Shown: piece after piece, positions 3,573 to 5,452 of the stretch
Numbering within the stretch: the first letter of the stretch is position 1
Layout of the letters: every line of letters begins with the position of its first letter
Source of the DNA: an uncultured candidate division Zixibacteria bacterium
GTDB taxonomy: Bacteria; Zixibacteria; MSB-5A5; RBG-16-43-9
Direction: 5' to 3'
Assembly: GCA_963713865.1 (NCBI GenBank)
Contig: OY970208.1
Location: 128,001 to 192,000 of the forward strand
DNA length: 64,000 bases
Notes under the pieces: generated by a model
The model's input: the letters and a program-made list of their open reading frames with translations, nothing else
Databases searched by the model: none
What the model was told of the DNA's origin: nothing
Program-made: the position numbers and the translations under genes

Positions 3573-3881
3573 TTAAATCGGTCGCTCCTTCTTTATCATC
3601 CTTGATTCTTACAACCCTTTTACGGGTAACGAATTAAATTTTAGTTAAGGAATATATATCCTCCTTTAGTATAACTTTTAAACGATAATTTTTAGGAAAA
3701 CATTGAACAATTTTCAGGTTGTAATAGAAAAATTTTCCTCTATCCTTAAACTCCCAAAAGGATTAAAAGGATTGAACTTGTTTTAAACAGATACATGAGA
3801 AAGAGCTTAAATGTTTGATAAATCAGGTAAATTATCCTGCTCAAGGCAGATGTTATTATCCGCCCTATATTTACTGCTGGA

Positions 3882-4008
3882 TGATAACATCCAGCGTCAG
3901 CCGTCGCCTGGCTCTGGCAAGACTCCTACCAAAAAAAAGAGCGCATGTTGCATAAAGGCGTGCGCATACCCGCACCGCAAGGCGGTCAGCTGCACACCGG
4001 GGTTAGGT
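3882..4008 (-). other. attC recombination site (~127 bp)
   Basis: Inverse core ACCTAAC, L-box pair TGTGCAGCTGAC / CGGCTGACGCT with an extrahelical G, central imperfect palindrome and core G^TTAT. Confidence 0.8.
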
Positions 4009-5067
4009 GCACCTGCCACTCACCAATCTGACTTTCATCGCAACATAACTCAACTGATATATCGCAACCATGCAAAATTAAGATGTATCCAGAAATCTAG
4101 GTGAGCTGTATTACCAGTGATGACGCGGCAATGATGCTGCATGTACCGAGATGTAACATGAACGCTTTTTTTCGCACATCAATCATCCGGTCCGAGCACG
4201 AGTACTCGGTCCAGGATACGGCCACGATCTTCCACGCCAGTCCGCCTAAAAGCAGCGTGATTAGTGTCAGGGGGATTATTGATGCTGAGAATACAGCAAG
4301 GAGTAACGTCGCGAAAAATAGCAGCGAGAGTGCGAGAACACCATAGCGGCCAGAGAAGTGCGGGCCAAAATCAATAACTATCGTCTTGCGCCCTGCTTTT
4401 TCATCATCTACTCTACTAACGAGTTCATCTATCCAAACCCACAAGCCGGTCGCGACAACTATCGGTAGCGAAGCCAGATACACCGTACGTGTGAGGTCAC
4501 CGACCTGGACAAGGTATGCTCCAAGAACAGGAATCATGCCAAGGCTTTCAGAGATGACGATCTCGCCGCCAACTCGCCGACAGAAATTGAACGGCGGTGC
4601 GACGTAGAGCACACCCACGAATAGCACAGTAAGCCCGTAAACAATGAAGATGCTCCTGGGAACACCGTTTGTGTAGAATCAGACCGTTGTTTAGGTGCAG
4701 ACCCAGGAAGCACGCCACAACAATGCACATACCTGCGTACCTTAGGAGCCGGGATTTAGGCCACTTGGTTGTGGACCTTTTTTCAAATCATGCCTGCAGG
4801 AACGAGAATCCGGCGTGGAATAAAATAGTTGCGAAAAGAAACTCAATGGTACCAAGCCACCTGAACGAGAAACCCGGTGGGCGGAGCCAGAATGGCAGCG
4901 TCGTGCCCACGAGCGCCGGAAGCAGGGAAGCAGTCCAGTAGCGGAATCCAGCGAAGTGGAGAAATCCAGAGATACCTTCAAAGGGTTCTCCTGCCGGAAG
5001 GTTGTCTTGCGCTATTTGGGTCATGTCCCTAACTCTCCTTTTTACCTAAGAATTCTTGTGCACCTAA
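3888..5067 (-). mobile_element. Solitary integron gene cassette (1180 bp) at a secondary site
   Basis: On the minus strand it starts G^TTAGGTGCAC (5068) and ends in an attC whose left end GTGCACCTAAC (4012-4002) is the exact complement. It holds one promoterless ORF with RBS and is visibly more GC-rich than its flanks. Confidence 0.85.
4097..5024 (-). pseudogene. MenA/UbiA-like prenyltransferase cassette gene, interrupted (in-frame TGA at 4788-4790, +1 indel at ~4669)
   Basis: Joined frames give FRYWTASLLPALVG ... GVLYVAPPFNFCRRVGGE ... DELVSRVDDEKAGRKTIVIDFG, which is MenA-like. The first Asp-rich motif is degenerate. Confidence 0.7.
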
Positions 5068-5089
5068 CATCCAGCATGAGCAAAAAAGA

Positions 5090-5452
5090 TTATTTCCCAA
5101 TCAGTAAAACACCTATCAGAATCAACCCCATCCCAACCCATTTATATAAAGTAAAAGGCTCTTTAAAAACCTGCCAGGAGAAAAGGGCTATGAGAACATA
5201 TCCGGTGCTCATCATCAGGGGATAGGCAAAGGAAAGATAAGTCCGGGATAACACGACCAAATAAAAAGCCACGCTTGCCACATAGGAGGAAATCCCTAGA
5301 AGCACGAAAGGGGTGGTGAAAAAAACCTTTTTAAAATCGGAGATGAGCAAAAGCGGATTTATCACTCCAATTTTATTCATCCCCGCTTTAAGGAAAATAT
5401 GCCCGCACACGTTTAAAAGGATAGCTAAAAATATTATCACCCATTGAAGCAT
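5090..5452 (-). CDS. SMR/EamA (DMT) family small 4-TM transporter, ArnE/ArnF-like
   Basis: 120 aa, 4 TM, LSRTYLSFAYP and FKEPFT..KWVG motifs. Confidence 0.8.
   Translation of the reverse strand: MLQWVIIFLAILLNVCGHIFLKAGMNKIGVINPLLLISDFKKVFFTTPFVLLGISSYVASVAFYLVVLSRTYLSFAYPLMMSTGYVLIALFSWQVFKEPFTLYKWVGMGLILIGVLLIGK

Follow-up and report, generated by a model that had tools for sequence, protein, structure and literature searches.

The window analysed here (the whole stretch of 64,000 nt, G000:C1:128001-192000) is part of the 2.72 Mb single contig of the studied genome, G000, which has a GC content of 40.4%. Within it, a small SMR/EamA-type transporter gene (5090-5452, minus strand) is the upstream neighbour of an integron gene cassette of 1180 bp (3888-5067, minus strand) that begins 22 nt after the transporter stop codon. 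Read in its own direction, the cassette consists of a 5′ core, a ribosome-binding site, a UbiA-like gene and an attC site. Its leader (5025-5067, minus strand) carries the remainder of the core, TTAGGTGCAC (5067-5058), and a Shine-Dalgarno-like AAAAAGGAGAG, and it is possible that transcription reads through from the transporter gene into the cassette. On either side the cassette is bordered by one part of a short doublet of hairpins, the left part at 3838-3887 and the right part at 5068-5082, the doublet lying 9 nt downstream of the transporter gene. The spacer upstream of the doublet also holds a tandem 9-nt repeat, AAAAGGATT, present twice at window positions 3756-3773.

The gene carried by the cassette (4097-5024, minus strand) encodes a membrane protein of the UbiA superfamily that is MenA-like. 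The Pfam UbiA model matches the C-terminal piece of the ORF with an E-value of 1.9e-11 and NCBIfam MenA-type models match the ORF at 1e-12, far below their cut-offs. In G000 the gene is a pseudogene with two lesions: a change of TGG to TGA at 4788-4790 and one extra base in the run at 4668-4670. It is intact, encoding 308 amino acids, in the genome G001 and in a metagenome contig (L083), is broken differently in a further orthologue (L082) and is open, as translated, in the genome G006. Independent breakage affects two of the four orthologous gene copies, the other two being intact, and the gene appears now to be decaying.

Limits of the insert and its attC site

The insert forms a discrete block in G000, with a GC fraction of 0.513 versus 0.398 for the whole window and a step in GC that is visible at its limits, the surroundings lying between 28 and 43%. 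A perfect 11-nt direct repeat, TAACATCCAGC, is found at both junctions. The left copy (3885-3895, plus strand) covers the end of the target loop (TAA) and the attC spacer, the right copy lies at 5065-5075 (plus strand), and the two matches in the window compare with none in 100 shuffles. A further perfect 11-nt pair, GTTAGGTGCAC, is made up of the inverse core (4002-4012, plus strand) and the core (5058-5068, minus strand), with two matches found and none expected. Searching Rfam with positions 3600-5300 gave nothing relevant, the two rows returned being at chance level. A preliminary description of this DNA had reported that the attC end and the target share 11 bp, as TAACATCCAGC bears out, and had put the crossover at G^TTAT (the caret marks the join). 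The latter stands in so far as the target fits GWTMW and integron chemistry predicts the join at this position; the sequence itself, because of the 11-nt repeat, permits any position within 3885-3896.

Integron attC sites have an inverse core, R″, with the consensus RYYYAAC, a core, R′, with the consensus GTTRRRY, and a length of about 57-141 nt. The site in the window (3888-4012, minus strand) measures 124-125 nt. On the minus strand it opens with R″, GTGCACCTAAC (4012-4002), followed by an 8-nt spacer, an L″ box with one bulged A and a branched variable part, and it closes with the L′ box, the spacer ACGCTGGAT and a final G (3889), after which comes the crossover; on the plus strand, C3888 completes the AAC at this end. 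With R′ restored from the cassette start, the site folds at -33.6 kcal/mol (top strand) or -26.9 kcal/mol (bottom strand) into an 11-bp R box, short spacers, a second stem and a branched tip. Both R″ (ACCTAAC) and the restored R′ (GTTAGGT) fit the consensus, and the cassette start complements its own R″ over a perfect 11 nt. By reading of alignments, the L box is perfect, at 11-12 bp with one bulged A, in the orthologues in G001, L082 and L083.

R1, a narrow covariance model built from seven attCs of a single Anaerolineae array, matched three further sites in that array, left the attC of the window unmatched and gave two weak matches only across the whole G000 genome. A broader model was tried and rejected, as MAFFT put the L boxes out of register and the model-guided alignment was full of reverse-strand and chance rows. 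Scans combining a sequence pattern with folding are crude: applied genome-wide, this approach returned 11 candidates and missed the studied attC because of the bulge in its L box. Neither R1 nor the pattern-plus-fold scan, both imperfect detectors, found another attC in the window, and the integrase profile TIGR02249 had no match there, in agreement with the lone cassette that the preliminary description had proposed.

The interrupted doublet and its family

The same description had claimed that removal of 3888-5067 rebuilds a branched palindrome, and it does. The left part of the doublet, defined by family alignment, models and covariation, comprises one half of an outer stem (TGCTCA, 3838-3843), hairpin 1 (3844-3865), a 9-nt linker (3866-3874) and the 5′ arm plus loop of hairpin 2 (3875-3887), whilst the right part supplies the 3′ arm of hairpin 2, CATCCAGCA (5068-5076), and the other half of the outer stem (TGAGCA, 5077-5082). 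Joined together, 3838-3887 and 5068-5082 fold into a 6-bp outer stem that encloses two hairpins of 7-9 bp, the 4-nt loops of which are complementary to each other. The rejoined flanks have neither lost nor gained a base relative to the consensus of the doublet family, and the insertion site is the GTTAT at the stem-loop junction of hairpin 2.

Members of this family share an order of outer stem (GCTC/GAGC), hairpin 1 (GGATG-TTAT-CATCC), a linker of about 9 nt and hairpin 2 (GGATG-ATAA-CATCC). The hairpins had been thought abundant in G000, which the counts do not bear out, with just 8 full-length loci among 62 nhmmer matches at E ≤ 10; matches to the covariance model number 29, both strands counted. 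By the same model, again counting both strands, the family occurs in 33 of the 34 genomes of the order, with 1 to 103 matches in each. Pairing was assessed on 46 aligned rows that had been fitted to the model and in which the same locus may be represented by both of its strands. It holds in 92.9% of the cells; of the 23 pairs, 15 vary in both partners, and those of the inner GGATG/CATCC are nearly invariant. Eight Y1_Tnp matches in G000 exceed the cut-off, none of them with a GGATG-N4-CATCC core within 900 nt, and a GTAG-type tag is found in no part of the doublet family. Because there is no Y1 gene beside the core and no GTAG tag, we term the family REP-like rather than REP. One Y1-transposase-like gene (801515-801856, within G000:C1:801150-802330) has on both sides duplicated segments of gene ends as well as repeated hairpins, which are of two kinds distinct from the doublet, and adjoins an attC-like site at 802.4 kb.

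An empty site is preserved in G008, a genome of another genus, where an uninterrupted doublet occupies the orthologous spacer, between a PorV-like gene and the small transporter gene. The orthologous spacer of G007 holds no copy of the doublet. The spacers of G008, G007 and G002 (L012, L013 and L009), together with the flanks of the G006 locus described below (L008), are packed with other hairpin families, some of them GTAG-tagged, and the hairpin content of these spacers differs among close relatives.

Nine copies of the doublet carry inserts of 18-40 nt placed exactly in a hairpin loop. In eight of them the insert follows the GGATGA of hairpin 2, and in the other it lies in hairpin 1. Eight of the nine (L084-L091) come from G019, G013 (two copies), G021, G016, G006, G032 and G020, and the ninth (L039) from G000 itself (G000:C1:789869-789964). 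The nested inserts are small palindromes of at least three kinds, and the hairpin loops of the doublet are a recurrent point of entry for them.

Related cassettes and integron remnants

A scan of species-representative genomes for the cassette identified three loci: one in G001, one in an Anaerolineae MAG (76% protein identity) and one in an Anaerolineales MAG (69%). The locus from the Anaerolineae MAG (L031, 8.7 kb) is an array in which short ORFs on a single strand alternate with attCs. The attCs number at least 10, likewise on one strand, corresponding to 10 R1 matches (the seven training sites and the three new ones). The UbiA-like homologue lies between an attC directly upstream and its own attC. 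From TTAGG onward its leader shows homology to that of the studied cassette, so that the two have the same 5′ boundary, and the GC content of the gene (51.5%) resembles that of the studied insert.

In the phylum the cassette occurs in 3 of 285 genomes, namely G000, G001 and G006. The insertion in G000 is shared with G001 and two metagenome contigs at the same orthologous locus. Identity between G000 and G001 is 85-92% in the flanks and rises to 95-98% over about 3650-5150, a stretch that takes in the cassette and roughly 240 nt and 80 nt of flank. Independent insertions in the two genomes were considered and rejected: the tract of low divergence extends beyond the cassette, which fits homologous exchange of one allele. 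From these comparisons, the insertion in the two species is probably one event that was spread by homologous recombination.

G006, which belongs to a different genus of the same family, carries a 94%-identical copy of the cassette at an unrelated locus. Homology of this copy to the window stops exactly at the core AAC (5068), that is, at the same base. Flanking genes are merely 72-78% identical between these genera, compared with 94% for the cassette, which therefore moved horizontally and landed at least twice. The 3′ limit of the G006 cassette is hidden by a repeat and by the end of the contig. No empty site was found for the G006 insertion, G004 sharing a flanking gene and not the spacer, and scans of metagenomes and of the 285 genomes of the phylum for an independent copy with an intact attC returned only the orthologous locus and the interrupted attC of G006. 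The repeat in question, a multi-copy element of at least 144 nt (L008:2580-2723, at the end of G006:C106), interrupts the G006 attC about 12-25 nt after R″; copies in G006 (C78, C133 and C7) and G008 (C52) are 92-99% identical and several lie at contig ends. No transposase was seen with it, and it may represent the end of an attC-targeting insertion sequence.

A search of G000 for intI with TIGR02249 did recover traces of integrase, in the form of five to six partial matches, all outside the window and none reaching the cut-off (265 bits; best match, 106.7 bits). There is no intact intI in the genome, only remnants of it. The best match is a C-terminal remnant of 69 residues (C1:753928-754134) within a 97-aa ORF. 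Across the order, 2 of 34 genomes have an integron integrase over the cut-off and several others have remnants; the full-length integrase locus of G014 shows no obvious attC array on its 15-kb contig piece.

The best remnant belongs to a decayed integron (G000:C1:753844-754890; L001, L028) in which it is followed, about 165 nt downstream and on the same strand, by a SnoaL-like cassette that starts at G^TTGGGCG, has its attC at 754824-754890 and ends at G^TTATAA. This site, at 754.8 kb, rejoins as a 6-bp mini-hairpin, TATAAC-CATC-GTTATA, which may be an attI. A second such locus (G000:C1:794180-795441, minus strand; L029) has an integrase C-terminal fragment of 22 residues (795376-795441) upstream of a cassette whose core and inverse core match perfectly over 10 nt and whose attC (794180-794338) measures 159 nt. 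The pattern-plus-fold scan also picked out attC-like sites at G000:C1:524546-524621, 453261-453369, 446700-446803 and 802414-802511, all of which end at G^TTAT. For that at 524.5 kb, a matching cassette start, perfect over 10 nt, lies 852 nt upstream, and the sequences that come after those at 446.8 and 453.4 kb are loosely similar. Downstream of mnmE lies a further cassette array (G000:C1:668280-673900, minus strand), with repeated junction modules of about 95-160 nt and a duplication of the mnmE 3′ end. Counted over the attC-like ends found in G000 by the scan, six of eight read G^TTAT, including one beside an intI remnant, which suggests a preference for GTTAT as core in this lineage. A list of all GTTATAC occurrences in G000 revealed nothing.

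Origin of the insertion and its wider meaning

The insert has exact limits and an attC architecture, it is homologous to a cassette in an array, the same 5′ limit recurs at a second locus, the doublet is uninterrupted in a relative and no usable intI is now present. We consider it likely (with a probability of about 0.7) that a circular integron cassette was inserted by an integron integrase into a non-integron site, by the reaction between an attC and a secondary site of attG type that yields SALINs. As in SALINs, there is a single attC and neither an integrase nor another attC in the window; as at attG sites, the target fits GWT/GWTMW (GTTAT) and shows no duplication, the 11-nt junction repeat being read as an identity between both partners. 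The circle, comprising the UbiA-like gene and its attC, would have been joined by IntI into the GTTAT of hairpin 2, with the crossover presumably at G^TT; its probable source is a Chloroflexota-like pool of cassettes richer in GC. The integrase would have been lost later, with only 3′ remnants left, and the cassette-bearing allele would have passed between sister species via homologous recombination. Four points speak against insertion by integrase: the R1 model, derived from one array, does not match the site, there is no intact intI, the crossover has no fixed position within the 11-nt repeat, and 8 nt of identity beyond GTT are not expected from an attG reaction.

The last of these would be accounted for if no integrase had acted at the joining step and an excised circle, or a single-stranded copy, had recombined via TAACATCCAGC. 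Template switching at a stalled hairpin, or illegitimate recombination, would give one unit flanked by an 11-nt repeat, and the repeat is perfect at both junctions and of a kind rare among GTT sites; moreover, three other delimited solitary cassettes lack junction identity, making the studied one exceptional. With a 1180-nt circle set against a 5.4-Mb search space, however, about 1500 chance 11-mer matches are expected and the junction should fall anywhere, whereas it spans exactly the R′ crossover (a chance of roughly 1%), and the end of the G006 copy falls on that very base with no such homology present. We therefore regard short-homology insertion as unlikely. A wholesale different origin, the decay in place of a larger integron or attC cluster without any insertion of a single cassette, is hardly credible: decayed integrons do exist elsewhere in G000 (C1:753.8-754.9 kb, with an intI 3′ remnant and a cassette, and about 794-795 kb), but the flanks of the insert rejoin into the family consensus without loss or gain of a base, G008 has an intact doublet at the orthologous place and the window holds no intI fragment.

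The nine doublet copies with loop inserts of 18-40 nt (eight in other genomes, one in G000) raise the question of whether a single-strand transposition system of HUH/Y1 type, such as the IS200/IS605 or REP-associated enzymes, targets these loops, in which case it could have set both the cassette (after GTTA, a junction that the 11-nt repeat permits) and the nested inserts, and the eight Y1_Tnp matches in G000 would offer a source of enzyme. We think this very improbable for the cassette, given that the insert has neither a transposase nor a subterminal hairpin at its 5′ end, that its limits coincide with integron core sites and with the limits of the array cassette, and that none of the eight Y1 genes has the GGATG-N4-CATCC core within 900 nt. 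A transposon or MITE with target-site duplication was rejected, as the ends of the insert are not mutual inverted repeats and the element in G006 includes the supposed 'target', xAAC.

Insertion by integrase leaves the junction identity to be considered. Beside the crossover, the attC spacer (...GCTGGAT-G) has the sequence that the 5′ arm of hairpin 2 shows on the minus strand, so that the left junction still contains a complete hairpin 2. G000 has 80,217 GTT sites, both strands counted, of which 8 are preceded by GCTGGATG, two of these being the junctions themselves; a random GTT would therefore show such identity about once in 10,000. The 11-nt identity is non-random (about 1e-4). The ...GCTGGAT spacer is absent from the attCs of the Anaerolineae array and from the other G000 sites. 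Three readings remain: that the identity helped the strand swap on a folded target, that it reflects short-homology insertion of an excised circle, or that it arose through later, hairpin-templated correction. On the first, the target would have been chosen through base identity. After the AA^C cleavage point, the bottom strand of the attC continues with the same 8 nt as the 3′ arm of hairpin 2, and the cleaved cassette strand could therefore pair perfectly with the 5′ arm, rebuilding the hairpin at the left junction. We put this forward tentatively, and doubt it more than we believe it.

A broader role for the hairpins, in which REP elements serve as landing pads for cassettes, had been suggested in the preliminary description and is not supported by the genomes examined. 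The junction signature, in which the pyrimidine-rich core remainder adjoins the arm of hairpin 2 and the outer stem, was found in 2 of the 34 genomes (G000 and G001), at the same orthologous locus, and the corresponding hairpin-1 signature in none of the 34, as judged by exact patterns that miss diverged stems. Among the 11 attC-like candidates in G000, a matching cassette start was located for three (about 524.5, 754.8 and 794.2 kb), and all three of these solitary cassettes lie outside the doublet family; they share no junction identity beyond the G, and those at 524.5 and 794.2 kb are not at hairpin loops. Nor is the G006 locus of the same cassette visibly inside a doublet.

Cassette insertion at secondary sites of the form GWTMW is reportedly known from classical work on class 1 integrons, on plasmids in clinical bacteria. 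The present case resembles those insertions in its target, GTTAT, which conforms to GWTMW, and in the completeness of the cassette, attC included, and differs from them in having a structured repeat as its target. Lone cassettes, or SALINs, have been described together with their origin by recombination between attC and genomic attG (GWT) sites (bioRxiv 10.1101/2022.09.11.507474). In the part of that account available to us, SALINs share with the studied locus one cassette with one attC, no integrase nearby, a GWT-type site outside an integron and a cassette co-oriented with a resident gene that could express it. They differ in that their attG sites are double-stranded and have at most a GWT consensus, whereas the target here, a loop junction within a conserved hairpin repeat, has 11 nt in common with the attC end, and in that their hosts are proteobacteria, the host here being an uncultured FCB-group bacterium; the strings 'palindrom', 'stem' and 'homology' have no occurrence in the available text of bioRxiv 10.1101/2022.09.11.507474. 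A search of the literature found no report of a cassette in a REP-type hairpin or of a structured repeat as target, which is no proof of absence.

Two further systems invite comparison, as far as the available parts of their descriptions go. Like REP, BIME and REPIN elements with their RAYT (TnpA-REP) enzymes (PMC8266576), the doublets are short intergenic palindromes in inverted pairs, multi-copy and with compensatory change in their stems, but they have no GTAG-type tag, no adjoining Y1 gene in G000 and an invariant core of GGATG-N4-CATCC. The IS1111-attC elements of the IS110 family (PMC11187229) are alike in that attC sites and REP hairpins are both insertion targets, and a multi-copy repeat does interrupt the G006 attC; the studied insert differs in lacking a transposase gene and in having integron-type ends.

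Taken together, this is a known kind of event, a SALIN-type insertion of a cassette from attC into a genomic site, in a single occurrence of which only the target is unusual. It provides a clean natural example of a cassette that left integrons and settled in a chromosome, with an empty site that can be reconstructed, a likely donor pool in another phylum and a second landing place in a sister genus. As such it supports the recently proposed route by which cassettes spread into genomes and extends that route to uncultured environmental bacteria. The sole potentially new lesson lies in the 11-nt identity at a hairpin loop, and in the question of whether identity or hairpin raises the rate of insertion. 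Were steering by identity to prove general, particular cassettes would have landing sites addressable by homology in small structured repeats with a GTT at the loop junction, and on folded single-stranded targets integron integrases would be sensitive to identity adjacent to the crossover.
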